NCBI GenBank assembly: GCA_035550375.1
Contig: DASZPH010000085.1
Span: 271,769-335,768 of the forward strand
Source: Pirellulales bacterium
GTDB lineage: Bacteria; Planctomycetota; Planctomycetia; Pirellulales; JAICIG01
DNA: 64,000 nt
Direction: 5' to 3'
Position 1 is the stretch's first letter. Each line of letters starts with the position of its first letter. The translations under genes were made by a program, and so were the position numbers. The notes below the pieces were generated by a model. The model was given only the letters and a program-made list of their open reading frames with translations, had not been told where the DNA came from and ran no database searches. Shown here one piece after another: positions 20,269 through 34,706 of this stretch.

Positions 20269-21132
20269 CTATCTGAGGTTCCCCGGTGCCGCGGCGCGCG
20301 TCCCCATGTCGAGGAATTTCAACAGGGCCACCATGTCGGCGTTGAACGCCATGCCGCGGGCGTTCGGCTTGAGCTCGAAGCCTTCGGCAACCGCCCGGTT
20401 GAAGATCGTTTCGGGCAGCACGCTCGACATGTCGAACAGGACGCGGGCCAGGTCGTCGGGCAGAATTTCGTTGCTCGCTGGGAACATGAAAGGATCGGCC
20501 GCGGTCATCGACAGGTGGCAGTTAAACAACAGCACGTTGCCGTCGTCGGTGGCCAGATCTTTCACGGCGTCGGCGTAGGGAATCGGGTCGCCGTCCTGCG
20601 ACTCGCCGTCGGTGATGTTGATCACGATCGGCGGAAAACTTGTGCCGTGATCCTTGATCCAGCCTTCGAGCACCTCGTACGCGTGGTGCAGGACGTTGCA
20701 CATCGGCGTTCCCCCCTGCGCCTTCGGGTCGACCCAGACCGGCATCTCGGCGGCGATGGAAATCATTTCGCCAGTGTCCTCGTCGGGGAGCTGCTGCTGC
20801 TTCTGGTCGATGCGTAGCGGGTTCTCGCCGACGTCCTTAATCGACACGAGTTCGCGGCCGGCGAGAACCCCCTGCAGGGCCGACTCCAGGATCGGGTTCC
20901 CCTGCTCGTCGGTGCGATACCCGATCACGCCGACGTCCATCCAGTCTTTGATGCCCGTATCGCCGCTCGCCCGGATGGTCATGTTCTGCAGCCAGGCGTT
21001 GAGGGCCGTCGCCAGCTCGTCCTTCTTGAGCTTGTCGGAATTGCCCAGCGGCTCTTCCATTGAGAACGACTGGTCGAGCAGAAAGAGGAAGCACGCCTTG
21101 CGGGCACGGCTGATTTCCTGAGTGTAGGGCAT
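20269..21132 (-). CDS. von Willebrand factor A (vWA) domain protein, TerY-like
   Basis: MIDAS 'LFLLDQSFSM' (DxSxS) near the N-terminus, 'VINITDGES' later. No signal peptide. Start is CAT at 21130-21132 inside track ORF 20269..21264. Confidence 0.8.
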   Translation of the reverse strand: MPYTQEISRARKACFLFLLDQSFSMEEPLGNSDKLKKDELATALNAWLQNMTIRASGDTGIKDWMDVGVIGYRTDEQGNPILESALQGVLAGRELVSIKDVGENPLRIDQKQQQLPDEDTGEMISIAAEMPVWVDPKAQGGTPMCNVLHHAYEVLEGWIKDHGTSFPPIVINITDGESQDGDPIPYADAVKDLATDDGNVLLFNCHLSMTAADPFMFPASNEILPDDLARVLFDMSSVLPETIFNRAVAEGFELKPNARGMAFNADMVALLKFLDMGTRAAAPGNLR

Positions 21133-21180
21133 GGAAGGGTCCTTGGTTGAATGGATTGGTAGTTCGTTGAGTCCGGCTTT

Positions 21181-21272
21181 AATGACGAAGCACGAATGAC
21201 GAAAGACGAAAGACGAACGGTCGATGCGCGTCCTGGCGCCGTTCGAACTTTGACATTCTGTCATTCGCCATT
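21181..21272. repeat. second copy of the GAATGACGAA-arm hairpin element
   Basis: 'AATGACGAAGCACGAATGACGAAAGACGAAAGACGAACGG-TCGATG...CCGTTCGAACTTTGACATTCTGTCATTCGCCATT'. Shares 'ACGAACGGnCGATG' with the 20108-20265 copy. Confidence 0.7.
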
Positions 21273-21296: not shown

Positions 21297-22742
21297 TTAG
21301 CGAAGCGCCACAATCTCCTGGTATTTTTCCCAGCGATCCAACACCTTGTGGGCCGTGGCGGCCGCGTCGCGGAACGACCACTCGCGGCACGATCGGTCGG
21401 GCTCGTCGTCGACGCCCCACTGTTCGCGGTAGGCGGCGAGCTGTTGCTGCCAGGTCTCGCAATCGTCGGCGAATTGCTGCCAATCGGCGCGGCTGGCCGA
21501 TTCGCTCGCCAGGCCGGCTACGCGCTGATTGTAATCCTCGGCCCAGGCAACGTACTGCGGCTTGCCGGGTGGCTGTTCCAAGGCCCCGCGCGGAATCTGC
21601 TCGTCGCCGCGAGGGCGCTCGGTCTGATGCCGCCGGTCGGTCCAGAAGCGGAATTGCTCGGCCCCCGCCGGCAAGAAGAACGTACCGATCTTCCGCTGTC
21701 CGCTCTTGGTGACGGCCTCCTGCTTGCCCAGCAGCGACGAGGGCGGGTCGACCTTCGGCAAACGATTTGCAATCCATTGCGTCACCTGACGGCGTGCATG
21801 CTGCTTGATCGGTTCTTCGATCTGCTTGTTTGCCAGGATTTGCGACGCCTCCGCCAACAGCGTATCGAGGTCGCCGGCCTGGTCCAAGACGCGGACCGAG
21901 ATTTCGCTTTTCAAACGGTCGCGGCGGCGCTCGAGCTGGGCTTGCAGATCGCGCTCGGCCGGGCTGGGTGGGTCGGGGTATTTGCGCAGGAACGCTTGCA
22001 TCTCGTTGAAAAGACTCCCATCGGCGCCCGACGTCTCCGTGCGGTCTAGCGCCTCCCAGGCCCTCCGGTATTCGGCCCGCTTACGCACGAGTTGCAGCCG
22101 TTCGAGCTGATCGGCGTCGGTCACGTGGGCCAAGGGATCGGTGTCGAGGCGTTTGAGACAGGCGTCGTATCGGCCCTGATCAAGATCGCTTCGGGCGGCC
22201 GCCTCGGCGTCGGCCAGGCGGTCCTGCCGGCGATAATCGCCGATTTCGTCTTGGAGCTGGCGGACGCGGCGGTCGAGCAGGGCGAAGAACTCGTCGGCCC
22301 CCTGCACCTGCCCCACGTATTTTTGCCGGTGGTCGGTAACGAACGCCTTCAGCCGGGTCAGCGACGCCTCCGCCTGCTGTCGACGAACGTCCGGCGAACC
22401 ATCGGGCGACACGTGAACGGCACCCGCCTTGGCGTATTGGGACACAAGCCGGCGGGCTTCCTGGGAGCCGTTCCAGGCGGCCTTCAGCCCCTCGTCGGCC
22501 GAATCGGGCAACGGCTCGCCGCCGGCTTCGAGCAGATCGATTCGGGGAAGGGATTTCAGCAATTCGGCTCTTTCTTTTTCCCGATCGGCCACAGCGGCTG
22601 CCCGGTTTGCGATCGCCCCCGTATCAAGCTGATTGGCATCGGCGGCCGAAGAAGGTCTCGCGCCGGCGGCCTGCCACACGCTGGCGACGGTGAGCACGGC
22701 CAACGGCAGGCAGGCGGCGACAAGGATCAGGAGGTATCGCAT
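21297..22742 (-). CDS. secreted, largely helical/coiled-coil protein of unknown function
   Basis: Signal peptide 'MRYLLILVAACLPLAVLTVASVWQAAGA'. Charged helical sequence. Start overlaps the upstream stop (TGATG at 22740-22744). Confidence 0.6.
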   Translation of the reverse strand: MRYLLILVAACLPLAVLTVASVWQAAGARPSSAADANQLDTGAIANRAAAVADREKERAELLKSLPRIDLLEAGGEPLPDSADEGLKAAWNGSQEARRLVSQYAKAGAVHVSPDGSPDVRRQQAEASLTRLKAFVTDHRQKYVGQVQGADEFFALLDRRVRQLQDEIGDYRRQDRLADAEAAARSDLDQGRYDACLKRLDTDPLAHVTDADQLERLQLVRKRAEYRRAWEALDRTETSGADGSLFNEMQAFLRKYPDPPSPAERDLQAQLERRRDRLKSEISVRVLDQAGDLDTLLAEASQILANKQIEEPIKQHARRQVTQWIANRLPKVDPPSSLLGKQEAVTKSGQRKIGTFFLPAGAEQFRFWTDRRHQTERPRGDEQIPRGALEQPPGKPQYVAWAEDYNQRVAGLASESASRADWQQFADDCETWQQQLAAYREQWGVDDEPDRSCREWSFRDAAATAHKVLDRWEKYQEIVALR

Positions 22743-25700
22743 CAGTTGCTTTCTGCAGGCTGACCGTCGTCAGTCGCCTCTTTTTCCGTAGCCGGCGGTT
22801 CCGGGTGGCCCATCACCAAATAACGGGCATACATCGTGGGGGTCACCCGGCGATAAACTACGGCCGAGAACTTGAACGCGCGTTTCCGAAGGGAGTCGAG
22901 CTGAGTCAACTGAACGTCCCGTTCCTTGGCAGCCCTCAAAACTTTATCGACGGCCATCTTGTATGCCCCTTTTGCCTCTTTGGTCCGGCGGTCCGGCGGC
23001 GGCAAGGCTGGAGCGTCCATGCCCAGTTCCGTGGCCAACGCCTTGGCAGCGGTATCCACGACGTCGAAGTCCTTGCTGAGGTCGAGAATGCGAATCTTGT
23101 CTTTCAGCGAGTTGGGCGATAAACGAGCCGGACGATTCTCGACCTTCCTGTCCGGATCGTTGTCGGACGTGATACGAATCAGCCACCTTGGCTCATGATC
23201 AACCGCAGCCCGCGCTAATTCGACGTGTGCTCCCGACTTTCTATACTGATCGGGCAAATCGCGGATGTCAGCCAGGCGCTTCGGCGAGGCGGCGTCGCCA
23301 AACGGAAACCGCCGTTCGTTTTCCACTTCGACCGACCCGTAGCCGAGAAGGAGCTCATCGTCCGCCGACGGCTCCAGGTCGCTGCCGCCAAGCTGGCGCA
23401 AGTCGAGTGTTAGTGTCCCAGCCTTGAACGCAAGCTCGTCAATCGTGATCGGCTTCGACAGACTGACGAAGGCCGAGTTGACGCTTCCCGCCGCTTCCAG
23501 CACGCATCGCCTTAGAGCCGTGTAACAGGCCGAGGAGGGCGGCCGGCCGTCTGAAGAATCGAACCACTGAAAGCTCACGCTCTCTCCCCCCGCGGTGAAT
23601 TGAGCCAGCGCGCTGTCCGTCCCACCTGCTTGGGCCGCGACTTGCAACGCTTCACCCTGCTGCACGACAGCGAGCTGCCCGTCGACGTGTTTCTTCAACC
23701 ACTCGTTGGCCGATGGCAAGCCGTGTAATTTTAGCTTAATTCGGCCCGGCTCGGCCGGCGACGTGTCGGCCGAAAGGTGAAGCTCTTTTAACAGGGCGCC
23801 ATTCGACTTTTCGTTGGACCGGGGGAGGGTGTGGTACTCATCGACAATCTGGGTGCTGTCATCCGGCGTCGGCTCCTTGGCGGCACCTTCAAGGGGCGTC
23901 GAGGGGCTGTCTTCCTTGTCCGTGGTCGCCGAAGGGGGCGTGGTTGGCACCGTCGTCTCGGGCGCGGGGCCATCGTCGGCTTTCTCGGGCACGGGCATGT
24001 CGTTCGGGCCATCCGGTTGGCCGTTCTTGCCAGTGACCGGCGCCTGGTCGCTCTTATCCGCTACCGAGGAAACTTTTGCCGCTTCTTCCTCCGGCTTGCG
24101 CTCGGCCGTTGAGCTCGATTCGTCGACCATTTCGCTATCGGCCGCCTCCGACGTCGACGATTCGACGGGCTCCGGCTGCTTCTTCTGGGCATTTCCTGTT
24201 GCCGGCGAACGACGCGTCGTTTGATTCGTCGCTACCCGCGAGGTTCGCCCGCCAAAAACGAAGTAGCCGATCAGGGGCACAAGCAAGGCGATAAGCAGGC
24301 CCGCGCCCGCGATGCTCGTCCAACTCGGCTGTTTGGCGCGGCGCTTGAGCTTAAACCGACGCTTGCCTTTGGTGAACGCGTTGGGGGTCGACCAGATGCC
24401 GTTCGTAAAATAAAGCTCGATGTCCTGCTTACCCGTCACGGTCAGCGGCGACCGGCCGAGCAGGCCCTGAGCGATCCTTTGCAGCGCTTGCAGCTTCCGC
24501 TTGCCCGAAGCGTCGTCGCCGTAGATCCAGAGTCGCTCCTCGAGCTCGCGCAGCAACTGCAACATCCTCGCCTGCTGCTGGCGGCGGCGCTGCAATTGCT
24601 CGAGCTCGGCCTGGGGGCCGCTGGCCGGAGCGCTTTTGATGGTCCTACTATCAACGGCCGCCTCCGCATCAAAGGTCATCGGGCAACCTAGATGCTGCGA
24701 GGCCAGTTCCAGGCGGGCCTTGAACTGGGGGACCTCCAGGCGGCAGTGTTCCGCCACCTCGGCCAGTTCGTCCAGTTCGCTCGTTCGTTTCGGCATCGCA
24801 TGGGCCAAGGCCTCACCCAGCGGCTTGAAGTCGGGAGGACGCGGCGGACGTAAGCGGTGCTTAAGGCGATCCAGGCGTCCCGCGGTCGACTTTTGCTCGC
24901 GTTCGCCCAGTTCCACCAGGCAGGAGCGGACCTTCTTCCATTCGCCCAGACGCCGCTCCGCCAGGTTCGGATAGAAGAAGTAAGCCTTCCACTGGTCGAG
25001 TACCGTGAGCCGCGTTTCAAAATCCTTGGCCCTGTCGGGCAACTCATAAAGCGCCTGTCCGAGCCGTCTGGCAAGCGTCGGCTGCGGCGGAGGATACGCT
25101 TCGGTCAGCTCGCTGCGATATCCGACCAGGGCGTCAAAAAGCGCCTCGTCCTCGAGCTGCAAGAGAACGTCGAGCAGCAGCCGTTTGAGAGCGGCGGGGG
25201 GCGACGCCGGCGGTTTGCAAGCGGCAATCAAAGCCGGCAGCAAGGCGGTCCGCCGACCTTCGTCGAGGCCCTCATAGACGCGGCGGAGTACGCCTTCGGG
25301 GAGCCGAGCCAGCAGGTCGGGCAACAGCCAGCCGCTGCTGGACGAGCGGGTTTTCGGCCGTTTGCCCTGCTCTTCGAGAAGCTGGCAGCCGTCGGGTAAC
25401 CGCCCTTGGGTACCCGCATAGGAAGCAAGTGCCTCCAGCTTGGCGCTGCGAAGCAAGAGGGGCGAGGCGACCAGTTCGGCGATCCGGTCGGGCGGAAACT
25501 CCTTCAAGAGCAGTTGCGCCGGCCGTTGCAGACCCGCCACCGGCGGCTCGCACGTGATCAACTCCAGCACGGTGAGATGGTTGGAGGTGCCGACGACTCG
25601 ATTCAGGCGGAAGCCGTTCCCCGGCGGCGTGGCGAGTTGGTATTGCACTTCGCGCGCCAGGTATCTTGCCGCCAGGTCGGACTTGCGCCAGGAGTCGTCC

Positions 25701-26788
25701 CCCGGCGGCGATGCCGAAAGAACCTGCGACGCGACGCGGTGCGTGGGGACGAGCACCTCGAGATCCTCCGGCCGTTTCGCTCCGGCCGCCTCAAACGCCT
25801 CGCGCAGACGGTCGACGGCTGCCCAGCCCTCTTCCAGCAGTTGCTCGATGATGAAGCGGGCGTAGTTGCCCTCCGGCACTCCCCCCTCCGAGACGCGGTC
25901 TAGATAGGTGTTGATCACCAGACCGCGACGCCGGTAGAGGTCGGTGCGGACATCGGCCGTTTGCGGATCGAAAAAAGTGGTGGCCGCCAGGGTCACGGGC
26001 AGCCGTTCAGCGTTGGGCTCGTAGGTCGAAAAACTCAGGCCCTCGGCGAGCGACTTGGGGAGCAAGCGGGCCACGCCGTAGAAGACGAGTGCGGCAATGT
26101 CCGGCTCGACCACGAGCAAGATGCTCTCTCGGCGCTGCGTCCCCAGCGCGAGCAGACCCTGCAGGGTGTTGGCGACCAGGTCGATTCGCTGCTGGGCCGC
26201 CATGTTTTGCCAGCGCGAGCCGACGAACGTTCCCCCGTTGTCTTCCGCAGGGGGAGTTGAGGGCTGCAAAAAATGTAACAAGGCGTCGTCGCCGACGGCC
26301 GGCTCGGTGCCGGCCCAGACTTCGTCAAGTCGTTCCAGCGGTGACAGTTTGAAGGGATGCTCGGGCGAATCCTCCGCCGTCCAGGGCGCGCTCCAGAGCC
26401 GCAGGCAGTCTGCGGTCGACCAGCCGCCGGCGGCACGGTCTGCGAACAGGACGTGCGCGAAATAGGAGCCCAGGCGGCCTGCCGTGTCGTACTGCCGGTA
26501 GGCCACCTGGCCGACCATCTGCAAGCGGCCCATCGACGGACAGAAGAAGAGCCGCCGCGGGGCGCCGGCCGCGTCGAGCCGCTGCTTTTCTTCGGGCGGC
26601 GTGTCGGAGGGAAGGTAGTAGTAGAGAAACCGCTCGATGGCACGGTAGTCGTTGCGCAGATCGTTGCGCTCCGCCGAGCCGGCCCGGGCGCTGTAGCCCA
26701 GCACGCGATCGGCCAGCTCGCCTTCGCGCTGCTCGAGCGCCGACGTGCCGTAGGTGCAGTGCGTGCAATAGACCTGCTCGATAGGCAT
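22742..26788 (-). CDS. 1348-aa single-pass membrane protein: N-terminal cytoplasmic domain, helical middle region, TM, PT/E-rich linker, C-terminal extracytoplasmic domain
   Basis: Long uninterrupted ORF. N-terminus 'IEQVYCTHCTYGTSALEQ...LGYSARAGS'. TM 'SWTSIAGAGLLIALLVPLIGYFVFG' (24251-24325). Low-complexity 'PVTGKNGQPDGPNDMPVPEKADDGPAPETTVPTTPPSATTDKED'. Confidence 0.7.
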   Translation of the reverse strand: MPIEQVYCTHCTYGTSALEQREGELADRVLGYSARAGSAERNDLRNDYRAIERFLYYYLPSDTPPEEKQRLDAAGAPRRLFFCPSMGRLQMVGQVAYRQYDTAGRLGSYFAHVLFADRAAGGWSTADCLRLWSAPWTAEDSPEHPFKLSPLERLDEVWAGTEPAVGDDALLHFLQPSTPPAEDNGGTFVGSRWQNMAAQQRIDLVANTLQGLLALGTQRRESILLVVEPDIAALVFYGVARLLPKSLAEGLSFSTYEPNAERLPVTLAATTFFDPQTADVRTDLYRRRGLVINTYLDRVSEGGVPEGNYARFIIEQLLEEGWAAVDRLREAFEAAGAKRPEDLEVLVPTHRVASQVLSASPPGDDSWRKSDLAARYLAREVQYQLATPPGNGFRLNRVVGTSNHLTVLELITCEPPVAGLQRPAQLLLKEFPPDRIAELVASPLLLRSAKLEALASYAGTQGRLPDGCQLLEEQGKRPKTRSSSSGWLLPDLLARLPEGVLRRVYEGLDEGRRTALLPALIAACKPPASPPAALKRLLLDVLLQLEDEALFDALVGYRSELTEAYPPPQPTLARRLGQALYELPDRAKDFETRLTVLDQWKAYFFYPNLAERRLGEWKKVRSCLVELGEREQKSTAGRLDRLKHRLRPPRPPDFKPLGEALAHAMPKRTSELDELAEVAEHCRLEVPQFKARLELASQHLGCPMTFDAEAAVDSRTIKSAPASGPQAELEQLQRRRQQQARMLQLLRELEERLWIYGDDASGKRKLQALQRIAQGLLGRSPLTVTGKQDIELYFTNGIWSTPNAFTKGKRRFKLKRRAKQPSWTSIAGAGLLIALLVPLIGYFVFGGRTSRVATNQTTRRSPATGNAQKKQPEPVESSTSEAADSEMVDESSSTAERKPEEEAAKVSSVADKSDQAPVTGKNGQPDGPNDMPVPEKADDGPAPETTVPTTPPSATTDKEDSPSTPLEGAAKEPTPDDSTQIVDEYHTLPRSNEKSNGALLKELHLSADTSPAEPGRIKLKLHGLPSANEWLKKHVDGQLAVVQQGEALQVAAQAGGTDSALAQFTAGGESVSFQWFDSSDGRPPSSACYTALRRCVLEAAGSVNSAFVSLSKPITIDELAFKAGTLTLDLRQLGGSDLEPSADDELLLGYGSVEVENERRFPFGDAASPKRLADIRDLPDQYRKSGAHVELARAAVDHEPRWLIRITSDNDPDRKVENRPARLSPNSLKDKIRILDLSKDFDVVDTAAKALATELGMDAPALPPPDRRTKEAKGAYKMAVDKVLRAAKERDVQLTQLDSLRKRAFKFSAVVYRRVTPTMYARYLVMGHPEPPATEKEATDDGQPAESN

Positions 26789-26827
26789 CTTGCTAACCAG
26801 GCAACAGCCAGCTCTCGCGGCTTCTTT

Positions 26828-29632
26828 TCACAAAACCCAGGCCCCAAAAAATCCCGAACCGCGTCGAGGCGCACTTGCAGGCACAACGTCCAGCCGGCCG
26901 AGCACAAGCGGCTCGCTGGCGAAAACATGAAAGCCCGCGTCGATCATCGCCCACACGACCACGTACGAGCCGAACCAGTCGGCTTCGACGTGCAGGATGC
27001 GGCTCCCTCCCCCTTCTTCAAAGCTTCTGCGGTCGACCGGCAGGCGAATCAGGGCGGCGAGCTGCCGGGGATCTTCGCCTCGTGCCGGCAGGCTGCGGCA
27101 CAAGGTGACGATGCACTGCTCGCTGTAACGGGGCTCGGGCCATTGCCAAGAGAGCCGGAACGTGCCGTTGTTGCCCGGCTCCCGAGCGAGCGCCTTGCGG
27201 GCCACCGGCGGCGCGAGCCCGATCTCGCGCGAAGCGAGCATCTCGGCCGCGATCCATTCTTCGATCCGGCCTCGGTAGTGGGCGAACTCGTTGGGGTGCC
27301 GTCGCAGCACGCGGGCGTCGAACGCCTTATGAAAACCAGCCCGGTCGTTTTTCTTGAGCGTCCCCATCAGATGCCGCAACGTGCGTAGCTCAGCGACCGC
27401 CCCCTTGGCGATTCGCGCCCAGTCGCTCGGCAGGGGATAACCGTCGAGGCAGTCTTCGCTTGCCAGCTCCGCGACACGCATCTTGTCGCCGGCCGCGATG
27501 GCCGCTTTCATTTGTTCCAGCGCCCCCTGCCTCCGCAGGGCAGCCTGATAGCTGGCCCTCCAGGCGTCGGCATCGTGGCACTCGGCCAGCAGGGCGTCGT
27601 TCCAGGTGCTCAAAAGCCGGCGGTCGAGTTGCGAGGCCTGGTCGATCGGATAATTGGGCGGGATCTGCTTGAGGATGCACAGCAGATTGGCCCGCTGGCT
27701 GGCGAGCGTAGCGCGGGCGCGCGTCGGTGCGGAAACGAGCGGCTGCGCGTCGATTTGCTCCAGGCGTTCCCAGGCGCCGGCGACGGCCAGATCGGAGATC
27801 GGCTCGTGGAGGGTCCGTTTCAAATGGGCCACGGCGTGGAGTCGGTCGTGCGCCAGCTTGAGTCGCGGTTGAAGGCGAAGTCCATATCCGCTGGGCAAGT
27901 CCGCCGCCGTCCGGTAGATGTCGTCTTCATTCGATATGCTCGTCGGCAGTGCCGCCAGCCGCTCCAACTCGGCGACGAGCTGCAATCGCCTTGTTGCGGC
28001 GGCCACGCGCGGTCGCTGGGCCTCAGCCTTCTTCCAGCCGAAAAAAAGCACCTCGTTCCAGGCCTCGACGAGCGCGGTGTCGGTCGTCTCGTTCAGGGCG
28101 GCCGGAACGGACGTGAACGAGCTCCAGGCGAATTCTCGCTGCAGGATGCGCTCGATCTGCGCACGATGGGAGTTCGTGTCAGGGTGCCCTCCCAAGGCCA
28201 CGAGCTGCTTCCAGCTTGCGTCGAGGGCGGCGGCGTCGCAGTCGGGTTGCGCCAGCAAGGCGAGCACCGCATCGCAGACCTGGTTTCGTTGGCGCCACGA
28301 CTTGACCTCGGCCTCGAAGCGTTCGGCGCTTTTTCGCCCGTGTAGGAGCTTTTCGTGGGCGTCCCATTGTCGGACGAATTGCCGCCAGTCGCCGGCGCGG
28401 CGGCAGCCCGCGAGCTGGTCGATCGCGGCCGCAACCCTCGGCGCCGTCTTCGCCAGAGCGACGGCTGCCTGGGCGTGAGGAAAGTCGTCGAGCAGTTTTG
28501 GCTCGTAAAGGCGCGAGATGGCCCGTTCGTCTCCGGCCGCGATCGCCCGTTCCAGCTCGGCCAGTCGCTCGACCCGCTCGTGGGCGTTGCGGATGCGCGG
28601 CTGCAGGGCGGTCGGCGCCGCGGAGGCCGGCTTGCGGCTGCGGTTAACCATCGCGATGGCGGCCTCGAAGTCGCGCGCGTTAAGCAGCGACTCGACCTTG
28701 GCATAGGAGAAGAGGACCGAATCGAGCTGCGGCACCTGGTCGAGGCGCACGCCACGCAGCGCGACGAGTTCTTCGCAAAGCCGCGGCACCTCGGGGTCCC
28801 CCGACCGCTTCAGGACCTTCATCAGCTCCGAGCGGGCCGGGTCGTCGAGATCTTCGCGGCGAAAGAGCAGCTTGTCGTACTGCGTGGGCTCGATGAATCG
28901 CTGCCACAGATCGGGCGCGGCGGCGAGTGCCCGCAGGGCCGCCAGGATGAAGAGGGCCGAGTAATTGTCGAGGTGCAAGGAGAGAGGCGTATCGTGGTTC
29001 CGCTCCGGGTGCTGATACGGTTCCACGCCGATTTCCAGGTTCTTGCGGCCGACCAGCGCCGGCACGCACATGCAGTCGTAATCGACGAGCTTGAGTTGTC
29101 CGGAGGTCGTCACCATTACATTGGCGTGCTGCAAATCACCGTGAGACACCTTGGCGGCCACGAGTTGCTCGACGGTCTGGACCCACTGTTCGCCCGCGCG
29201 CTGCAAAGCCGCCTGGTTTTTTTCGCGACACTGACGGCCCGTCCACTTCAGGAGCGTTTCGCCCGGCACCCACTCCATCGTCACCAGCGGGTAGTACTTT
29301 CCGTCGCTGGCGGAGCGAATGCCGTCGTCGGCGTAGGTAAAACCGACCAGCGGCTCAATGCGCCGGCCCTGCAAGTAGGCAGCGATGGCGTTGTAGCGTT
29401 CGCGCCGTTCGGATGCCGCACTGGTGAAGACACGGATAGCCAGCGACCCCCGGCCGTTAGCGTAGTTCCCCTTGTAGACCGTGGCGAAGGCGCCAGACCA
29501 GGCCCGAGGCTGCCGCCGGTCGTCCTTTTCGATCGCCACCCGCTTCAGCTCGGCATCGCGAAACGCATGCTGCGGGTTTTGCAGCATGGTGCTGAAGTGC
29601 GAGGCCAGCGGCCAGGACAGTGCAGACGGCAT
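26828..29632 (-). CDS. atypical Ser/Thr protein kinase-fold protein (YegI-like) with long helical-repeat C-terminal region
   Basis: 'GAFATVYKG' Gly-loop, 'LAIRVF' beta3, 'HGDLQHANVMV' catalytic loop, 'KLVDYD' in place of DFG, 'EPYQHPER'. Repeated 'AIAAGD...' helical modules downstream. Confidence 0.8.
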   Translation of the reverse strand: MPSALSWPLASHFSTMLQNPQHAFRDAELKRVAIEKDDRRQPRAWSGAFATVYKGNYANGRGSLAIRVFTSAASERRERYNAIAAYLQGRRIEPLVGFTYADDGIRSASDGKYYPLVTMEWVPGETLLKWTGRQCREKNQAALQRAGEQWVQTVEQLVAAKVSHGDLQHANVMVTTSGQLKLVDYDCMCVPALVGRKNLEIGVEPYQHPERNHDTPLSLHLDNYSALFILAALRALAAAPDLWQRFIEPTQYDKLLFRREDLDDPARSELMKVLKRSGDPEVPRLCEELVALRGVRLDQVPQLDSVLFSYAKVESLLNARDFEAAIAMVNRSRKPASAAPTALQPRIRNAHERVERLAELERAIAAGDERAISRLYEPKLLDDFPHAQAAVALAKTAPRVAAAIDQLAGCRRAGDWRQFVRQWDAHEKLLHGRKSAERFEAEVKSWRQRNQVCDAVLALLAQPDCDAAALDASWKQLVALGGHPDTNSHRAQIERILQREFAWSSFTSVPAALNETTDTALVEAWNEVLFFGWKKAEAQRPRVAAATRRLQLVAELERLAALPTSISNEDDIYRTAADLPSGYGLRLQPRLKLAHDRLHAVAHLKRTLHEPISDLAVAGAWERLEQIDAQPLVSAPTRARATLASQRANLLCILKQIPPNYPIDQASQLDRRLLSTWNDALLAECHDADAWRASYQAALRRQGALEQMKAAIAAGDKMRVAELASEDCLDGYPLPSDWARIAKGAVAELRTLRHLMGTLKKNDRAGFHKAFDARVLRRHPNEFAHYRGRIEEWIAAEMLASREIGLAPPVARKALAREPGNNGTFRLSWQWPEPRYSEQCIVTLCRSLPARGEDPRQLAALIRLPVDRRSFEEGGGSRILHVEADWFGSYVVVWAMIDAGFHVFASEPLVLGRLDVVPASAPRRGSGFFGAWVL

Positions 29633-30018
29633 TCAGGCGGACGGGATGAAGTACGGTAGACGCCGGGTGCGGCCGAGGGACACCCAAAGGTAGCCCCGGC
29701 ACTCCGTGACGGGGAGGCGGTCTCGTGGCGGCCACCTTCTGGCTCCCGTTCATTCTATGCTGGTTGTGGCGGGTTTCCCAGGATGGTGCCATCCAAGGGA
29801 AGTGGGGCCGACTTGGCGACCCAGAGTTGCACGTATCGGCACCTTTCCTCGTCTGCCACCAGCTTTAACGCTTTAGTCAGTGGCAAAGGCCACGCATTCG
29901 TCATTAGTTCTTATCCGACAGCAGTTCAAACCATCGCGGATAGAATTGCTCATTCCCATCGACTCGATGCGGCTACCGCACCCAGGGCGAAACGAAGGGC
30001 GGCATTTTTCGGACTCGC

Positions 30019-32184
30019 TCAGCCTAACACCGGGTAGCCGTTCATGTGCAAAAGCCACAACAGGGGCTCCAGCAGGCCGACCGGGGCAATCGTGCGACGG
30101 CTCAAATCCCGCTCGCCGAGGCCGTCCAGCCCGACCGGCGAAAGCGGAAAGAACAAGAACCGGCCACCGAACAGATCGTCGATCTGACGCTCGATCTGCC
30201 AGCCCGGCCAGATCGTGTCGCGAAGCTGGCCCATCACCTTCGAGCGGGCCTCGATCGTCTGGATGCTCATGTCCCAATCGATCTCCCCCAGGTCGCGATA
30301 GAATTTTTCGATGGCTCCCCCGCCGTGCGGATCGGCGTAGGGTTGGCTGACCATCAGATCGATCTTCGAGACGCACAGCGCGATCGGGACGTGCACTTGC
30401 TTGCCCGCCCCGATGCCCTTGATGCGGCGCAGATCCTCGCGAAAACCGGCCAGCGCCTGCGACTGCGTCTCACTTGGCTCGGTCGGATCGAGGAAGAAGA
30501 AAAATCCGTCGCCGTCGAGGGCCCGCTGCCGCTGGCGGTCGTCGATCGTCTGACTGCGGATCACTTCGCCCGAATAATCAAAAATGTTGACCAGCACGTT
30601 CGACGTGCCGAAGCGGTCGTGGTCGAGGAAGTTGAAGATCAACGGATGGGGGATGCGGCCCACTTGGGTCGCCATCGGCCCCAACTTCTTGTTCAGGATT
30701 TCGTCGACCACGATGTCGAAATCGTCCGAGCTGGTCGAACGGATCCGCTCGAACTGAACCGCGCTGGGATAATTGCCCCGGTTCAGCTCGCGGTAGACCA
30801 TCGCCAGCCAGTGCGTCTTGCCGGCCTGCGGGATGCCCAGCGTGGGGAAGCAGAGCTTGACGTTCTGGCGGTACATGGCCGAAAACGTGAAGTCGCACTC
30901 CTCATAGGGATGCTCGGAAATGACGTTCTTGCAGCGCACCATTTCCAGGCCCGGGTGTGAGGCGTCGCCGGTCGGCTCGAAGGTTCCCTCACCAAGGCAG
31001 AGCGGGCACGTCTCGCGGGTCTTTCGCTGGCGGCCGCGGACCTGCCTCTTGAACAGCAACCCGCCCGTGGCGGCCAGGCCGAGCAGGCCGACGCCCAATC
31101 CGCCGCGAATCCATTCCCGCTGCCGCCGGTAGGCGTCACGCTCGGCGGCGTACTGGGCGATTTTCGCGCGGGCCGAATCGAGCTCTTTGAGATCCTGCCG
31201 CAACCGATCGGCCACCGTCCTCTGGCTCGCCAGTTCCTGGGTCAATCGCACGACCGCCTGCGACGCTCGCTGGGTCAGTTCCAGCAGGCCGGCCGCTGAG
31301 GCCGCATCCGGCTGGCCGGTTCGCCACTTGTTTGCCGCATCTTTGTATGCCGCCTCGGCGGACCGTTTGTGTTCTTGGGCTTGAGCCCGTTCGGCGTCGA
31401 TCGACTTGTTTTGCTCGACGAAGGCCTGGCGAGGCGATGGCTCGGCCCCCATGCCCGCCTGCAACAACCACTGATAGAGACGATCGCCGAAGACGAACGT
31501 GGCCAAGGTGACGATCGCCACGAACGTCAGCAGGCCGGTGAGGAATTTGGAGAGTCCCAGGGCGCGGGCTCGGCCGCCGTTGAGCCACCGGCGGATCTCA
31601 TGGCGCCGCTCGTGAAGGGTCACCGCCGCCACGCTGCCGAGGGCAAACAGGCCACAAAGCCAGAACCAGCGGTTGTCGACGCTCAAGAGCGACGCCATCT
31701 GCCCGGCGATCTGCTGGCTGGCTTTCACCTCGTACAGTTCAAGTTGCTGGTTGTAGAGCGTCGTCCGCACGCCGCGCCAGTCGTCGATGAGCTGTGTGCC
31801 CTCGGCGGCCGCGTCGTCGGCGTCCCGCTCAATCGCCCGCACAACCTTCTGGCCTTCCTTTTCGGCAATCTCCGCCAGCGCCCTTCGCTCGTCGTCGGCC
31901 AGCCCGGACAGCATGGCGGTTACGCTTGCGCCGGGATGTCCGCCCGACGACAACCATTCCTGCTCGCGCTTCAGCGTCTCGGCGGCCGCTTGCGCCTGCG
32001 CCTGGCTGACGACGCTTTCGACGTAGTGGCCGGCCAGGCGGACCGCCTCGCCGCGGGGTTCGCCGGCCAGGGCCGGTCCCGCAAGGCCGTCCGCCGCGCT
32101 TGCCGCGTTGCCCGATGCAACCGCCAGAACGAGCCAGCCGAGTCGGACGATGCTGTGGCGACCCATTCCAGTTGGCAAATGCAC
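30019..32184 (-). CDS. membrane-anchored P-loop GTPase-like protein with coiled-coil regions and a zinc-ribbon-like motif
   Basis: Signal-like N-terminus. TMs 'WFWLCGLFALGSVAAVTL', 'LTGLLTFVAIVTLATFVFG', 'GLGVGLLGLAATGGLLF'. 'CPLCLGEG...VRCKN...YEEC'. G1 'GIPQAGKTH' (30811-30837), G3-like 'IFDYSGE', G4-like 'CVSKIDL'. Confidence 0.65.
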   Translation of the reverse strand: MHLPTGMGRHSIVRLGWLVLAVASGNAASAADGLAGPALAGEPRGEAVRLAGHYVESVVSQAQAQAAAETLKREQEWLSSGGHPGASVTAMLSGLADDERRALAEIAEKEGQKVVRAIERDADDAAAEGTQLIDDWRGVRTTLYNQQLELYEVKASQQIAGQMASLLSVDNRWFWLCGLFALGSVAAVTLHERRHEIRRWLNGGRARALGLSKFLTGLLTFVAIVTLATFVFGDRLYQWLLQAGMGAEPSPRQAFVEQNKSIDAERAQAQEHKRSAEAAYKDAANKWRTGQPDAASAAGLLELTQRASQAVVRLTQELASQRTVADRLRQDLKELDSARAKIAQYAAERDAYRRQREWIRGGLGVGLLGLAATGGLLFKRQVRGRQRKTRETCPLCLGEGTFEPTGDASHPGLEMVRCKNVISEHPYEECDFTFSAMYRQNVKLCFPTLGIPQAGKTHWLAMVYRELNRGNYPSAVQFERIRSTSSDDFDIVVDEILNKKLGPMATQVGRIPHPLIFNFLDHDRFGTSNVLVNIFDYSGEVIRSQTIDDRQRQRALDGDGFFFFLDPTEPSETQSQALAGFREDLRRIKGIGAGKQVHVPIALCVSKIDLMVSQPYADPHGGGAIEKFYRDLGEIDWDMSIQTIEARSKVMGQLRDTIWPGWQIERQIDDLFGGRFLFFPLSPVGLDGLGERDLSRRTIAPVGLLEPLLWLLHMNGYPVLG

Positions 32185-32391
32185 GATAAGCGTCGGGAAA
32201 ACAGAGGTACTGGACCGGCGCGGTCGAGGGGTTTAGAGGTGTTTTGTTCGACAAAACCCTTCTTTTGACCATACCTGCGGCAATTCCTGCTGTCAAAAAG
32301 CGCACGCCGGTTGCAAACGGCCGCGCGGCGAAATACTCTGGAACCCGTCTTCTCCCCTGCGTCTGACGTTTTTAGTTGGAAGGAAGCCTTC

Positions 32392-33408
32392 ATGAAGCGC
32401 GCGCCGCGGCTTCGCGCACGCCTCCGGTGGTGCCCGATCGTGTCGACAATCGTCCTGGCGACCGCTTGCGCGCGCACGTCCGCGGTTGATGCGGCGGAAC
32501 CGGCTTATGATGTCAACGCGCTAGACCAGGAGTTCGCCGCGTCGGCCGCCGAGAACCCCAAACTTCAAGGCGCGTGGATCGACCTCGATTACGAGCCCAG
32601 CGCGGATGAATCGCTCCCCGGCAGGTTCACGGTCCGCCGAGTGCTCGATTCAAGCCGGGCGGACACGCAGCGAGCCGAGATTGACCGCGTCGCGGCCGGC
32701 TGGCTTCCTGCGGGCCGCTATCAGGTCAGGCCGCAGGCCGACCGGCTCTATCCCTTCTCGCGCCTTCTGGCCGACCTGGAGCTGGCGATCGAAACCGAGC
32801 CGACCCTGAGCGGCTGCCAGATCACGGGGGGTTATTACGCGGGCGACCCGAACGAGCCGGGCGCGCTCAACCTCGTGCTTCGCGGCCGGATCGCCCGTGA
32901 AGACCAGGACGTCGAGATCGAGGGGCTTTGCGGACGATTGATGCGTCGCGACCCGGCCTGGATCAAACCCAGCAACGGTCGACGAGGCGATCCCGGTGCG
33001 AACGTCGCGCTGGCGATCGCCCCCAAGACGACGGAGCTGAAGGTGGTCGAACCGTCGGAGGCCAACGGCCGCTGGTTCTACGCCGCGGGCCTGCGGCACT
33101 TCTGGAAGCTCGACTACGCCCGCGCCGCGCGGGCTTTCCACCAGGCGACGCTCGAATCGCCGCGCACGCTGCAATATCACTACTGGTGGATCCTGGCCGA
33201 CCTGGGCCAGGGCAAGAAGCAACTGGCCCGCCGCCGGATGGACATGGTCGCCCGCCGCTTCCGCGAAGAGGATTTTGATCACCAGTCGCCCGAATACCGG
33301 CTTGTCGTCCGCTCGTTGGAGCGCGTGCAGGGGCCGTTGCGTCAATCGTTGCAGCGGCTGGAGACGCAAGCCCTGTTCGGCAACTCGCAGCTTGGCGCGA
33401 ATTACTGA
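32392..33408 (+). CDS. secreted hypothetical protein
   Basis: ATG 32392 preceded by GGAAGG. Signal-like 'MKRAPRLRARLRWCPIVSTIVLATACA'. C-terminal helical (TPR-like) 'WFYAAGLRHFWKLDYARAARAFHQA'. Confidence 0.5.
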   Translation: MKRAPRLRARLRWCPIVSTIVLATACARTSAVDAAEPAYDVNALDQEFAASAAENPKLQGAWIDLDYEPSADESLPGRFTVRRVLDSSRADTQRAEIDRVAAGWLPAGRYQVRPQADRLYPFSRLLADLELAIETEPTLSGCQITGGYYAGDPNEPGALNLVLRGRIAREDQDVEIEGLCGRLMRRDPAWIKPSNGRRGDPGANVALAIAPKTTELKVVEPSEANGRWFYAAGLRHFWKLDYARAARAFHQATLESPRTLQYHYWWILADLGQGKKQLARRRMDMVARRFREEDFDHQSPEYRLVVRSLERVQGPLRQSLQRLETQALFGNSQLGANY

Positions 33409-34706
33409 TCGCGGCGCTCCGGCTGTTTTGAGCGGCGGGCAATGTTATTTCTCGCCCCCGGCGTTTCGCCGCCGTTTATCGCGCCGCGAACCAGAGTATC
33501 GTCGACGACTTGCACGAGTTCGCGGGCACCTGGGTGATAGTGCGTGGGCTCGAATCCCTGCAGATACCCTGTACGCGCGCCGTCAATAACGTCCCAGCGA
33601 GAGAGGCCGCTCGGATCGGATGAGAACAGCCAATGTCCGTCGCTGAAGAATGAACCGGCAGGACCGGCAAACGCTGTAAGCTCGCAAGGCCAGGGCCCGT
33701 CGACAGCACGCCAGCGAACCTCTCCATCTCCCGTTAAGGAAACGTCAAAGATGCGGGCACCTTCGATCATATCCTGGTCATCGTCGCCGATCCCGCCTAT
33801 GACTATCCGGCTATCATCGAGCCAAGTTAGTGCATGATCCCAGTAATAATGACGTGCGCATATGGCTTTCCGCGACGGTCCATCTTCGGACTCCCATACG
33901 TTGTCAGAGATCCACGGTTCGAGCTTCCAAGTTGCCGGAACGCCAACGGGATGCCACACCCAACCATCATCAACGATACGAACACTGTTCGGACTAATTT
34001 GGATCGCCCCGTGGAAGTAATCCAGATCGTGAATTGGTCGGTCCTCTCCCGGCCCCCAGCTTGTCGGATTCCGATCGGTCAGTAAGGTTCCGGTCAAGGG
34101 ATCGGACACGTCGAGCCGGTTCCAGTCCGTGCGATGGATGGCCACCGTCCGCCCCTTGACGTGGGCAAAGGTGAACGAGAACGGGACCGTTTCCGCGTTA
34201 TCATCGCCGCCGTAAAGCGATAGGGTCACTCGGCCGGATCGGAGGTCAATGACCTGACCATAATATCCATAGTCATTGACGATGGCGGCAAAATCGCCAT
34301 TTGGAGCAGCATGCAAGCGCGGTTTCAGGATTCGATCACGCCAAGGTTCGTGATCGGGTTCCGAGGGGAGAGTTGCGCGTACGAGGCGATTCCACTCGCA
34401 GGTGTCGGCATCGAATCGGGCGATCAGGCCGTCTTCAGCGAGTAACAGCCAGTGCGACCGCCCGTCCCGAAGGATCGGAGAAACATCAACGATCTTGCCG
34501 AGCTCTCGTGGCAGAGCCGTGTTCTCAAGTGGAAGGTCGAAGGCTTCGCAACGAGACCGAATCTCGGGCTTCCCACGAACCCCCATGAAACGGCCAACTG
34601 CAGTTGCGGCGTGCTCGAGGCACTCCTGGCAAACAACGTCGCTGGTGACCGGTCGCCCTGTCTCACGCTCATGCGCGCAGGAATTGCAGAGCAATTCGGA
34701 ATCCAT
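33402..34706 (-). CDS. hypothetical protein with N-terminal CxxC...CxxC motif and beta-rich body
   Basis: 'LLCNSCAHE...VVCQECLEH' followed by repeated W/D/G-rich strands. Start ATG (CAT 34704-34706) inside track ORF 33402..34817. Locally lower GC by eye. Confidence 0.5.
   Translation of the reverse strand: MDSELLCNSCAHERETGRPVTSDVVCQECLEHAATAVGRFMGVRGKPEIRSRCEAFDLPLENTALPRELGKIVDVSPILRDGRSHWLLLAEDGLIARFDADTCEWNRLVRATLPSEPDHEPWRDRILKPRLHAAPNGDFAAIVNDYGYYGQVIDLRSGRVTLSLYGGDDNAETVPFSFTFAHVKGRTVAIHRTDWNRLDVSDPLTGTLLTDRNPTSWGPGEDRPIHDLDYFHGAIQISPNSVRIVDDGWVWHPVGVPATWKLEPWISDNVWESEDGPSRKAICARHYYWDHALTWLDDSRIVIGGIGDDDQDMIEGARIFDVSLTGDGEVRWRAVDGPWPCELTAFAGPAGSFFSDGHWLFSSDPSGLSRWDVIDGARTGYLQGFEPTHYHPGARELVQVVDDTLVRGAINGGETPGARNNIARRSKQPERRDQ

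Follow-up and report, generated by a model that had tools for sequence, protein, structure and literature searches.

Organization of the locus

The DNA analysed here (the window) is a stretch of 64,000 nucleotides from a Pirellulales bacterium, and all positions refer to it. It contains a compact cluster of five genes on the reverse strand, which encode, in order, a GTPase, a TerY-P-type kinase, a membrane GAP1-N2 protein, a secreted helical protein and a TerY-like vWA protein. The features of the locus are:

30019..32184, reverse strand: DO-GTPase2 gene, open for 721 aa from a GTG
26828..29632, reverse strand: 934-aa kinase protein, with an N-terminal TerY-P-type Ser/Thr kinase, a long helical region and a β-rich C-terminus
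22742..26788, reverse strand: 1348-aa GAP1-N2 protein, with one TM segment (aa 826-844) and an extracytoplasmic tail of about 500 aa
21297..22742, reverse strand: 481-aa protein (p481), with an N-terminal hydrophobic signal or anchor (peak aa 4-22) and a helical body
20269..21264, reverse strand: TerY-like vWA protein, identified by PADLOC TerY, with a DxSxS MIDAS motif (LLDQSFSM)
32268..32296, reverse strand: promoter-like site TTGACA-17-TATGGT, 5' of the GTPase gene
32311..33408, forward strand: gene for a 365-aa protein, divergent from the GTPase gene

In public protein collections the GTPase starts at residue 7, an ATG at 32166, giving a protein of 715 aa. The promoter-like site comes from a consensus scan (10/12 matches) and is a pattern match only. 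The start of p481 overlaps the stop of the GAP1 gene. The GTPase and kinase genes are 386 nt apart in the window, and Rfam and a repeat scan found nothing recognisable in this gap: Rfam gave no RNA family over 19000-35000, and the repeat scan of 29400-32500 gave short, chance-like matches only. Because of this gap, and because the GTPase is unlinked to the cluster in five related loci, co-transcription of the GTPase and kinase is not assured. Three genomes with an isolated GTPase keep the kinase-GAP1-p481-vWA cluster on another contig.

The locus is set among housekeeping genes (a cytochrome oxidase operon, UvrA and a DeoC-like gene) and not in an obvious defence island, and no mobile-element genes were found flanking it.

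Domain structure and proposed topology of the GTPase

The GTPase consists of a signal-like segment, a helical hairpin, TM1, an Arg-rich loop, TM2, a second hairpin, TM3, a four-Cys zinc ribbon and the GTPase domain. The predicted N-terminal segments, all on the reverse strand, are:

32092..32184, reverse strand: signal-peptide-like N-terminus, aa 1-31, with a basic end, a hydrophobic stretch and small residues (ASA/AD)
31669..32091, reverse strand: first extracytoplasmic helical hairpin, aa 32-172 (AlphaFold2 helices 45-80, 84-93 and 97-156)
31483..31668, reverse strand: TM1 (aa 173-191), Arg-rich cytoplasmic loop (192-213) and TM2 (214-234), together aa 173-234, from hydrophobicity
31111..31482, reverse strand: second extracytoplasmic helical hairpin, aa 235-358 (AlphaFold2 helices 251-289 and 298-344, in blocks of pLDDT 85-95)
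31054..31110, reverse strand: Gly-rich TM3, aa 359-377, from hydrophobicity, with G364, L367 and G374 invariant

This layout is kept in 116 of the 150 best relatives, among which the number of N-terminal hydrophobic peaks is four in 74, three in 28, five in 11, two in 2 and six in 1. A first-pass annotation of the sequence had called the architecture unusual. The layout that it described is real, but it is the norm in the subfamily, and TM segments and zinc ribbons both appear in the published text on the family (Kaur, Burroughs, Iyer and Aravind, 2020, eLife 9:e52696, PMC7159879).

Kyte-Doolittle analysis gives peaks at aa 173-191, 214-232 and 359-377, which reproduces the three hydrophobic segments reported in that annotation (aa 173-190, 215-233 and 361-377). 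There is also a fourth, signal-like hydrophobic stretch at the N-terminus (aa ~14-30), which was absent from it; this stretch recurs in homologues and is required for the topology proposed here. The homologues share the N-terminal pattern, with a mean net charge of +2.9 ahead of the hydrophobic stretch. The Arg-rich loop between TM1 and TM2 (HERRHEIRRWLNGGRARALGLSK) is conserved, with 59.7% identity, and residues F174, W175, G178, R193, R194, E196, R198, L201 and G203 of TM1 and the loop are invariant. A basic stretch, KRQVRGRQRKTRE, follows directly after TM3. When counted over 25 homologues as K+R minus D+E, the net charge is +5.4 for the TM1-TM2 loop and +4.3 after TM3, as against -6.6 for the first helical region and -1.6 for the second. 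This positive-inside bias fits an arrangement in which the helices would lie outside the membrane and the zinc ribbon and G domain inside, which is how the coiled coils and GTPase had been placed previously. The supposed coiled coils are indeed helical regions, but AlphaFold2 gives two hairpins and not one long coil. It is rather probable that the GTPase is active and is inserted in the membrane with this topology.

The two hairpins are much less conserved than the rest of the protein. In the first hairpin region the mean identity is 22.7% over aa 1-135 and 60.1% over the juxtamembrane aa 136-172, and the second hairpin, at 24.2% over aa 241-350, is likewise fast-diverging. Identity is thus 23-24% in the outer segments, while the TM core, zinc ribbon and G domain reach 60-72%. 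The nucleotide state of the G domain may be coupled to the outer helical region, which would fit both the topology and the fast outer divergence; equally, the low identity of the outer helices may reflect mere weak constraint on coiled coils, and not sensing. In a PDB profile search the top match, of ATP synthase subunit b to the second hairpin, had a non-significant E of 0.095, and no usable look-alike of the N-terminal half (aa 32-392) came from the ESM Atlas.

Proteins at three related loci (L041, L043 and L045) were considered as 'short' forms made up of the zinc ribbon and GTPase, and this was rejected. The L043 protein is 725 aa long and has the same signal/helix/TM front half, which is too diverged to be found by tblastn, and the front halves of L041 and L045 look frame-broken.

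The zinc ribbon and GTPase domain

The C-terminal half of the protein contains the following features:

30895..31008, reverse strand: four-Cys zinc-ribbon-like module (CPLC ... C418 ... C430), aa 393-430, from motif coordinates
30022..30867, reverse strand: TRAFAC-type G domain, aa 440-721, from the domain model and fold matches
30811-30837, reverse strand: G1 / Walker A, GIPQAGKTH, aa 450-458
within the G domain, reverse strand: candidate G2, T506, invariant
30565-30579, reverse strand: G3, DYSGE, within LVNIFDYSGE (aa 531-540)
30358-30369, reverse strand: G4, SKID, within ALCVSKIDL (aa 602-610)

The four-Cys module is a putative zinc ribbon, present in a single copy; all four Cys are found in 25/25 sequences, and it forms short β strands in both structure models.

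The GTPase matches the Pfam family DO-GTPase2 (PF19993) over aa 448-613, with a score of 36.2 bits against a cut-off of 27, and reaches only 15.9 bits against DO-GTPase1 (cut-off 27). Among the 8000 sequences scored there are 234 relatives at E≤1e-3. Relatives down to 44% identity have E = 0 and cover 93-100% of the length, and PF19993 is present in all of the 120 homologues listed. Given these relatives at E = 0 and the invariance of the motif residues in 25/25 sequences, the ORF is not a chance observation. PADLOC and NCBIfam have no family for the GTPase itself, and a PDB sequence profile search found no chain matching the G domain.

Residues G450, G455, K456 and T457 (G1), T506, D536, G539 and E540 (G3), and K607 and D609 (G4) are invariant in 25/25 aligned sequences. 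In a larger alignment G1, the candidate G2 Thr506, G3 and the G4 xKxD are invariant in 33/33, except for the Walker B Glu E540 of D536-Y-S-G539-E540, which is present in 29/33. Identity within the G domain is about 72% across the aligned set.

A model of the G domain (aa 385-721) has a pLDDT of 84.6 and a pTM of 0.88. Foldseek found at least 500 matches to this model at E≤1e-3, with atlastin, Ran, Rho and Ras at the top (probability 1.00). The domain-only model was needed because the full-length model gave no Foldseek match at E≤1e-3, and only weak G-alpha rows. VIA gave the Rag-like GTPase 8yl2_A (Z 15.2, rmsd 2.7, 174 aligned), YcjX 6nz4_A (Z 14.7, rmsd 3.8, 234 aligned) and MglA 5ymx_A (Z 12.9), and Rab, Ran and Rho also match the G domain fold. 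The C-terminal sequence LLEPLLWLLHM was considered as a further TM helix; in the model it is the high-confidence last helix of the G domain.

The fold and motifs support the prediction that this is a complete TRAFAC/Ras-like GTPase. In Ras-like GTPases the G4 Asp confers guanine specificity. Glu540 would correspond to Gln61 of Ras and may thus be a catalytic residue built into the domain.

The first-pass annotation had suggested a membrane-tethered TRAFAC-like GTPase, and the PF19993 match together with the predicted TRAFAC/Ras-like fold supports that reading. The positions that it gave for CPLC...YEEC, Walker A, LVNIFDYSGE and ALCVSKIDL are all reproduced exactly. The profile search that it proposed, against Pfam GTPase families including DO-GTPase, gives a P-loop GTPase match above the Pfam threshold (PF19993), and the motif spacing is compatible with a GTPase, aa 385-721 being predicted as a TRAFAC/Ras-like G domain. 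It had also noted a likeness to the GTPases of conflict systems, and a GAP1-N2 gene is indeed found two genes downstream.

Partner genes

The kinase protein matches Pfam Pkinase (37.4 bits, cut-off 31.7) and PADLOC STK_OB (2.8e-52 over aa 7-307). The latter match covers profile positions 3-294 of 562, which is the kinase part of the profile only, so that no OB fold is demonstrated by it. The catalytic-loop residues H164, D166 and N171, and D184 at the DFG-equivalent position, are at least 95% conserved in 36 sequences. The β3 Lys position is occupied by a conserved Arg67, which makes kinase activity uncertain.

The GAP1 protein scores 30 bits against Pfam GAP1-N2 (PF20013, cut-off 24) and 19.7 bits against GAP1-M, which is below the cut-off of 24; GAP1-C gave no match. 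Its look-alikes in the ESM Atlas carry GAP1-N2/M, with GAP1-M in 31-37% of the members of the look-alike clusters. It also has a linker rich in Pro, Ser, Thr and Glu. No Pfam or PADLOC family was found for p481, and its conservation across related loci is weak.

The vWA protein matches PADLOC TerY (2.5e-77 over aa 45-325), and matches Pfam VWA below threshold only; its true start is probably M45. Copies that are 70-95% identical lie at the end of related clusters.

No PP2C phosphatase was found in the 37 window ORFs scanned, and no toxic effector domain is recognisable in the five cluster genes. The five cluster proteins gave no match to an FNIII family at the thresholds used; β-rich regions are present in the kinase C-terminus and the GAP1 tail.

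Conservation and distribution of the cluster

Of the 42 planctomycete loci with at least 1 kb of sequence beyond the GTPase gene, 37 have the kinase gene downstream of it. A GAP1 homologue is present in 26/31 related loci with at least 5 kb downstream, and the vWA gene in 17/24 loci with at least 9.5 kb downstream. The cluster occurs in 8/10 genomes of its own family, in 1/140 genomes from other families of the same order, and in 1/400 genomes in a sample of the phylum. This patchy distribution is as expected of an accessory system.

Comparison with known systems

Kaur et al. (2020; PMC7159879) predicted the DO-GTPase family and the GAP1-N2 'GTPase-centric' conflict systems, and in the terms of their text the locus is such a system. 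We regard it as very likely that the ORF encodes its DO-GTPase2. According to the same text, the DO-GTPases have as a hallmark a Glu in Walker B, with one or two N-terminal zinc ribbons in 60% and N-terminal TM segments in 13%. The protein described here resembles them in being a TRAFAC GTPase with the Walker B Glu, an N-terminal zinc ribbon and N-terminal TM segments, and its locus resembles their systems in the downstream GAP1-N2 protein with a C-terminal TM, the occurrence in planctomycetes and the predicted membrane-proximal action.

There are also differences from that text. It reports a pair of paralogous GTPase genes, the source of the family name, in 38% of systems; the pair is not obligatory. 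Here there is one GTPase gene only, with no second one in the cluster, and this lone GTPase carries the four N-terminal hydrophobic segments that are ascribed there to one member of the pair. It has one zinc ribbon and not two, and has no C-terminal TM. A fast-evolving FNIII-repeat protein is treated in PMC7159879 as typical of GAP1-N2 systems, whereas Pfam found none here. The paired, fast-diverging periplasmic hairpins look new, since that text does not describe them.

The kinase theme of GAP1-N2 systems (a protein kinase, a PP2C and a standalone vWA) is described in the same text as 'restricted to actinobacteria', and the planctomycete themes named there are FGS and GYF. The present locus is like the kinase theme in that kinase and standalone vWA genes are joined to a DO-GTPase/GAP1-N2 core and the kinase C-terminus is β-rich. 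It differs in being found at planctomycete loci (37/42), in having no PP2C and in having the conserved Arg in place of the kinase β3 Lys. Compared to the text of PMC7159879, the kinase/vWA theme in Planctomycetota therefore looks new, although Figure 6 or the source data of that paper may already show it.

The TerY-P triad is described in the text of PMC11090510 and PMC7699616 as a TerY vWA protein, a PP2C and a Ser/Thr kinase with a C-terminal OB fold or zinc ribbon; the OB-fold form is a stand-alone anti-phage system according to Gao et al. (2020), as cited there. The vWA protein of the present cluster has a full-length match to PADLOC TerY, and the kinase domain matches STK_OB. In contrast to the triad, no phosphatase was found, and the kinase and vWA genes sit inside a GTPase/GAP1 cluster that also encodes three membrane or secreted proteins.

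The Rag-like, Rab/Ran/Rho, MglA and YcjX GTPases share the predicted fold of the G domain and are structural neighbours only, with 12-21% identity, and they lack the front half with its signal, TM, hairpin and zinc-ribbon segments.

In the literature searched, we found no biochemical or genetic data on any DO-GTPase or GAP1 protein, and the DO-GTPase/GAP1 systems, although a large class of gene clusters, are known there from a single computational paper. The compact planctomycete form ties the GTPase/GAP1 core to two parts of the TerY-P module, for which anti-phage activity is reported. It also lends itself to experiment, through a soluble G domain whose Glu540 may be catalytic, a proposed topology, and exposed helices that change fast.

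Possible functions of the system

Family membership, fold, motif conservation, the topology from charge counts and the gene linkage provide a starting point, from which we infer a sensing role, a direction of signalling, a set of protein contacts and a biological purpose. The best explanation overall, and on balance a probable one, is that the ORF product is the switch GTPase of a GAP1-N2-type system, in a membrane-spanning DO-GTPase2 form with two helical hairpins outside the cytoplasmic membrane. The two outer hairpins would pack as one bundle, reporting an event at the envelope, which could be an invader, damage to the wall, or a contact made by the bundle with GAP1, through its periplasmic tail, or with p481. 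From there the signal would reach the zinc ribbon and G domain via TM2, TM3 and the conserved Arg-rich loop. Whether the G domain carries GTP or GDP would set the engagement of the GTPase with the cytoplasmic N2-M module of GAP1, and the output would be via the TerY-P-type kinase and the TerY-like vWA protein.

The part of this proposal in which the outer helices are the signal input is tentative, and we would put it at somewhat below even chances. If the outer helices do control the G domain, the protein would be a simple bacterial model for transmembrane control of a Ras-like switch; otherwise it adds another member to a predicted family already known. A more specific form of the idea, which is unlikely as it stands, is a single-chain 'receptor plus G protein'. 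Here the two variable hairpins would form a four-helix bundle in the periplasm that recognises a cue from outside, such as a partner protein or a piece of phage or wall, and the three TM helices would carry this straight to the protein's own Ras-like domain to control its nucleotide exchange or dimerisation. GAP1 would be a longin/DENN-like regulator, with phosphorylation by the kinase-vWA pair as output. If true, the system would amount to transmembrane G-protein signalling in bacteria, with the envelope as the thing guarded.

Among the alternatives, the cluster could be a lineage-specific planctomycete machine for envelope housekeeping, regulating an envelope-spanning or cytoskeleton-like assembly, and not a conflict system. 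Its conserved gene order and presence in 8/10 genomes of the family would suit this, as would the ~72% identity of the G domain, the housekeeping neighbours with no flanking mobile-element genes, and the fact that no toxin-like effector was recognised. However, a core envelope function would be expected to be distributed more broadly than 1/140 genomes of other families and 1/400 of the phylum sample, the kinase and vWA proteins match models built from an anti-phage module, and the outer parts diverge fast; we consider it an unlikely explanation.

Less likely still is a role for the outer hairpins as a stalk or an output, and not as a sensor. GAP1 and the kinase would then control the GTPase from the cytoplasmic side, and the GTPase would drive an inside-out change in the periplasm via the GAP1 tail or the 481-aa protein. 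In its favour, conservation in the N-terminal half is highest in the TM1-loop-TM2 unit with its Arg-rich loop, and not in the outer helices; GAP1 and p481 likewise have periplasmic parts; and the second hairpin has a weak likeness to the ATP synthase stalk subunit b, which at E 0.095 is not significant. Against it, the direction of signalling is not distinguished by the data, and the text of PMC7159879 expects fast divergence in the exposed parts of sensing modules in GTPase-centric systems, which matches what is seen here.

It is very improbable that the G domain serves as an ATPase or a nucleotide-binding scaffold, and not as a cycling switch, in a protein that is mainly a membrane anchor for the kinase/GAP1 complex. 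G4 is SKID and not the canonical N/TKxD, no solved relative is near enough in sequence to transfer enzymology, and position 540 is not Glu in 4/33 relatives, but all of the nucleotide-contacting motifs, including K607 and D609 of xKxD, are invariant (33/33), and the G4 Asp and the presumed Gln61-like position of Glu540 argue for a GTPase.

Other genes considered

The sole other DO-GTPase match in the genome (PF19993) is on another contig, adjoining an FGE-sulfatase gene. It was rejected as part of the cluster, being a separate small module of an FGE-sulfatase and a zinc ribbon-GTPase. A 471-aa Cys-rich neighbour (33402-34817, reverse strand) was also rejected as a part of the system, having no family match and no homologue in the 48 loci. 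The 365-aa protein has no Pfam or PADLOC family. A homologue of it is found upstream of the GTPase in 8/48 loci, on the opposite strand in L004, L008, L012, L019, L021, L022 and L034 and on the same strand as the GTPase in L035, and it is possibly an accessory gene of the system.

The GTPase gene and its family

The open frame at 30019-32184 has a third-position GC of 0.83, typical for coding genes of the window, and a promoter-like site is found upstream of it. Public protein collections use an ATG start about seven codons further in, giving a protein of 715 aa. The following features were read from the sequence. The coordinates of the four motifs and the three hydrophobic peaks listed in the first-pass annotation were all reproduced.

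30019-32184, reverse strand: DO-GTPase2 gene, open frame of 721 codons
30895-31008, reverse strand: cysteine motif, aa 393-430
30811-30837, reverse strand: Walker A motif GIPQAGKTH, aa 450-458
aa 531-540, reverse strand: LVNIFDYSGE
aa 602-610, reverse strand: ALCVSKIDL
aa 173-191, 214-232 and 359-377, reverse strand: hydrophobic peaks

There is a fourth, N-terminal hydrophobic stretch at about aa 14-30, missed in the first pass, with basic residues before it and ASA/AD after it. It is also present in homologues, and looks like a signal peptide.

Searching Pfam with hmmscan, aa 448-613 match DO-GTPase2 (PF19993), scoring 36.2 bits where the curated cut-off is 27; DO-GTPase1 reaches 15.9 bits on the same protein, under its cut-off. 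No family was found for it in PADLOC or NCBIfam. The protein is a member of a known family, one that was itself predicted by computation. Among 8000 candidates scored from a collection of 5.8 billion proteins, 234 relatives were found at E<=1e-3. PF19993 is present in all 120 relatives listed, with query coverage of 79-100% and identity down to 44%, and their named sources are Pirellulales, Thermoguttaceae or Planctomycetota MAGs.

In an alignment of 25 sequences, the four cysteines (C393, C396, C418 and C430) are invariant, as are G450, G455, K456, T457, T506, D536, G539, E540, K607 and D609. The same residues are found in 33/33 sequences of an alignment of the C-terminal 337 aa, except for E540 (29/33). 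We take E540 to occupy the position of Gln61 in Ras. A glutamate directly after DxxG is given as the defining feature of the DO-GTPases, described as a TRAFAC family whose Walker B motif has a glutamate, in the available portion of the text of Kaur et al. (2020; PMC7159879).

Zinc ribbon and G domain together were also used as a profile against 1.84 billion cluster representatives; 1352 proteins matched at E<=1e-3, of which 411 reached 1e-10 and 267 reached 1e-30. The Walker A motif lies past residue 380 in 116 of the best 150 representatives, which implies that these have the long front half. The number of hydrophobic peaks before the zinc ribbon in these 116 is generally four (n=74) or three (28), with five in 11, two in 2 and six in 1. 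The remaining 34 proteins are shorter, a good number of them resembling gene fragments. Among related loci where the tblastn match begins only at residue 393, at least one (L043, encoding a 725-aa protein) has a front half of the same type.

Structure predictions

The full-length AlphaFold2 model has a mean pLDDT of 76.5 and a pTM of 0.57. It predicts helices at 45-80, 84-93 and 97-156 in the front part, transmembrane helices within 169-201 and 209-245, and two further helices (251-289 and 298-344) between TM2 and TM3, with TM3 sitting in helix 346-391. The cysteine module is predicted as short strands, followed by a domain of alternating strands and helices. A C-terminal hydrophobic stretch was considered as a membrane segment and rejected, since in the model it forms the last helix of the G-domain fold.

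A model of the domain only (aa 385-721, 33 sequences) has a pLDDT of 84.6 and a pTM of 0.88. Foldseek gave no significant match for the full-length model, and a sequence-profile search with the G domain found nothing in the PDB; for the domain model, Foldseek gave at least 500 PDB matches at E<=1e-3, with Atlastin-1, Ran, RhoA and KRAS among those listed, all with a probability of 1.00. A second search of the domain model, independent of Foldseek, gave the following matches, at 12-21% identity.

8yl2_A, Rag-like GTPase: Z 15.2, rmsd 2.7, 174 aligned
6nz4_A, YcjX: Z 14.7, rmsd 3.8, 234 aligned
3e5h_A, Rab28: Z 14.0, rmsd 3.4, 177 aligned
5ymx_A, MglA: Z 12.9, rmsd 3.5, 184 aligned

Membrane topology

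Net charge (K+R minus D+E) was counted for each segment in 25 homologues.

Ahead of the first hydrophobic stretch: +2.9
First helical region: -6.6
TM1-TM2 loop: +5.4
Second helical region: -1.6
After TM3: +4.3

Under the positive-inside rule, this pattern assigns an outside location to both helical regions and an inside one to the loop, the zinc ribbon and the G domain. The first-pass annotation had proposed the same arrangement for a membrane-tethered TRAFAC-like GTPase, with which these predicted positions agree; its observations are borne out, and its interpretation is supported by the PF19993 match above cut-off, the TRAFAC/Ras-like fold and the positive-inside topology.

Mean identity to the window protein is only 22.7% for the first outer region and 24.2% for the second, whereas TM1-loop-TM2 reaches 59.7%, the zinc ribbon 61.1% and the G domain 71.9%. 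Within the front half, the loop between TM1 and TM2, HERRHEIRRWLNGGRARALGLSK, is one of the best-conserved stretches.

The gene cluster and its conservation

Four more genes lie downstream of the GTPase gene on the same strand.

26828-29632, reverse strand: kinase, 934 aa, N-terminal kinase domain, Pkinase 37.4 bits against 31.7
22742-26788, reverse strand: GAP1-N2 protein, 1348 aa, GAP1-N2 30 bits against 24, GAP1-M sub-threshold
21297-22742, reverse strand: p481, 481 aa, helical, with an N-terminal hydrophobic signal or anchor, start overlapping the GAP1 stop
20269-21264, reverse strand: vWA protein, 331 aa, PADLOC TerY 2.5e-77 over the whole profile, DxSxS motif

The kinase domain matches PADLOC STK_OB (2.8e-52, aa 7-307). 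In 36 sequences, H164, D166 and N171 of the catalytic loop and the DFG-equivalent D184 are kept, and R67 (at least 95% of the sequences) is at the position where the β3 lysine is expected. The C-terminal extension of about 600 aa is helical and then β-rich. The GAP1 protein has one TM segment (aa 826-844). A basic cluster lies ahead of this segment, and a linker rich in Pro/Ser/Thr/Glu, then a globular tail, come after it. Judged by their sequences, the kinase and vWA protein belong with the TerY-P module, the OB-fold form of which is described as a stand-alone anti-phage system in the available text of PMC11090510 and PMC7699616, citing Gao et al. (2020). Judged from its translated sequence, the gene after vWA looks like a deoxyribose-phosphate aldolase, which would put the end of the cluster at 20269.

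When one genome was scanned for each species, 48 related loci were obtained, all Planctomycetota by record title. Downstream genes were counted by tblastn with the window proteins, over those loci with enough downstream DNA.

Kinase homologue directly downstream, same strand: 37/42 loci (at least 1 kb)
GAP1 homologue downstream: 26/31 loci (at least 5 kb)
vWA homologue downstream: 17/24 loci (at least 9.5 kb)

Five loci (L003, L005, L007, L008 and L047) have no kinase, and a long GAP1-N2 gene lies elsewhere in each of these genomes. In the three of these genomes that were examined further, kinase, GAP1, p481 and vWA lie together on another contig (L054, L055 and L056), with no adjoining GTPase gene, so that the GTPase gene can be unlinked with both parts kept. 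The GTPase of this sub-lineage is about 63% identical to that of the window, and in two of its three clusters a second, diverged TerY-like vWA (27-30% identity) adjoins the first. The gap between GTPase and kinase genes is 386 nt in the window, against 6-40 nt in many relatives, and contains no recognisable RNA or repeat.

With the whole GTPase as query (E<=1e-20), matches were found in 8/10 other genomes of the same family, 1/140 genomes from other families of the order, and 1/400 other genomes in a phylum-wide sample; in that last sample, only two candidates per genome were scored. The window's genome has a single GAP1-N2 gene, that of the cluster, none being detected elsewhere. It has one further DO-GTPase match, in a module at L053:8266-10268 on another contig (C117). 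There, a 365-aa protein with an FGE-sulfatase domain (Pfam 1.4e-40) is overlapped by a 314-aa zinc ribbon and GTPase protein behind it, which scores above both cut-offs (DO-GTPase1 54.4 bits, DO-GTPase2 41.9 bits). This module agrees with the planctomycete 'FGS' theme in the available text of PMC7159879.

Comparison with published systems

A literature search on family terms found DO-GTPase/GAP1 systems described by PMC7159879 only. In the portion of that text available, 60% of DO-GTPases carry one or two zinc ribbons at the N-terminus, and about 13% carry TM segments there; the partner is a GAP1 of N1 or N2 type, with planctomycetes among the GAP1-N2 hosts; and the GTPase is proposed to be a threshold-setting switch, with sensing coordinated by GAP1. 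As far as that text goes, the match of these features makes the window system a member of the kind described, with three differences. Firstly, the theme of kinase, PP2C and standalone vWA is there 'restricted to actinobacteria', whereas the kinase and vWA here are in Planctomycetota and PP2C was not found (neither PP2C nor FNIII families were detected among the 37 window ORFs scanned). Secondly, in the paired form described, one GTPase has four TM helices at the N-terminus plus a single one at the C-terminus, whereas the single GTPase here has four N-terminal hydrophobic segments and no C-terminal TM. Thirdly, the two periplasmic helical hairpins have no counterpart in the same portion of text. 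The GTPase is a predicted-family member in a variant setting.

Possible function

The results above show the protein's family, fold, motifs, charge-based topology and gene linkage; its sensing role, signalling direction, contacts and purpose are inferred. We propose that the whole protein is a transmembrane switch. Its outer hairpins would receive the input, which the TM helices and Arg-rich loop would relay to a switch made up of zinc ribbon and G domain; in the cytoplasm, the protein would have the GAP1 N2-M module as its partner, and output would run through the kinase/vWA pair. Alternatively, the system may be a lineage-specific envelope machine, or signalling may run inside-out, with the helices as a stalk or output. 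The GTPase might also be a non-cycling scaffold that binds nucleotide.

Surroundings of the cluster

Upstream of the GTPase gene is uvrA, together with an unrelated 471-aa gene and a divergent gene:

32311-33408, forward strand: 365-aa protein, divergent from the GTPase gene, no known family

Homologues of the 365-aa protein are found upstream of the GTPase gene in 8/48 loci, from several planctomycete families, and the protein may belong to the GTPase system as an accessory. For the 471-aa protein (33402-34817, reverse strand), neither Pfam nor PADLOC gave a family, and a homologue was found in none of the related loci; the protein has several CxxC-like pairs at its N-terminus, and a third-position GC of 0.61, below that of its neighbours.

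The wider window contains a chemotaxis operon and a cytochrome oxidase operon. The respiratory block (3870-16178, forward strand) encodes an Fe-S protein, an NrfD-like membrane protein, cytochrome c proteins, SCO1/SenC, COX2, COX1, COX3 and COX4, and resembles an operon for alternative complex III plus cytochrome oxidase, an ordinary housekeeping context. Between 42000 and 47000 the GC content is 0.55-0.59, compared to about 0.64.
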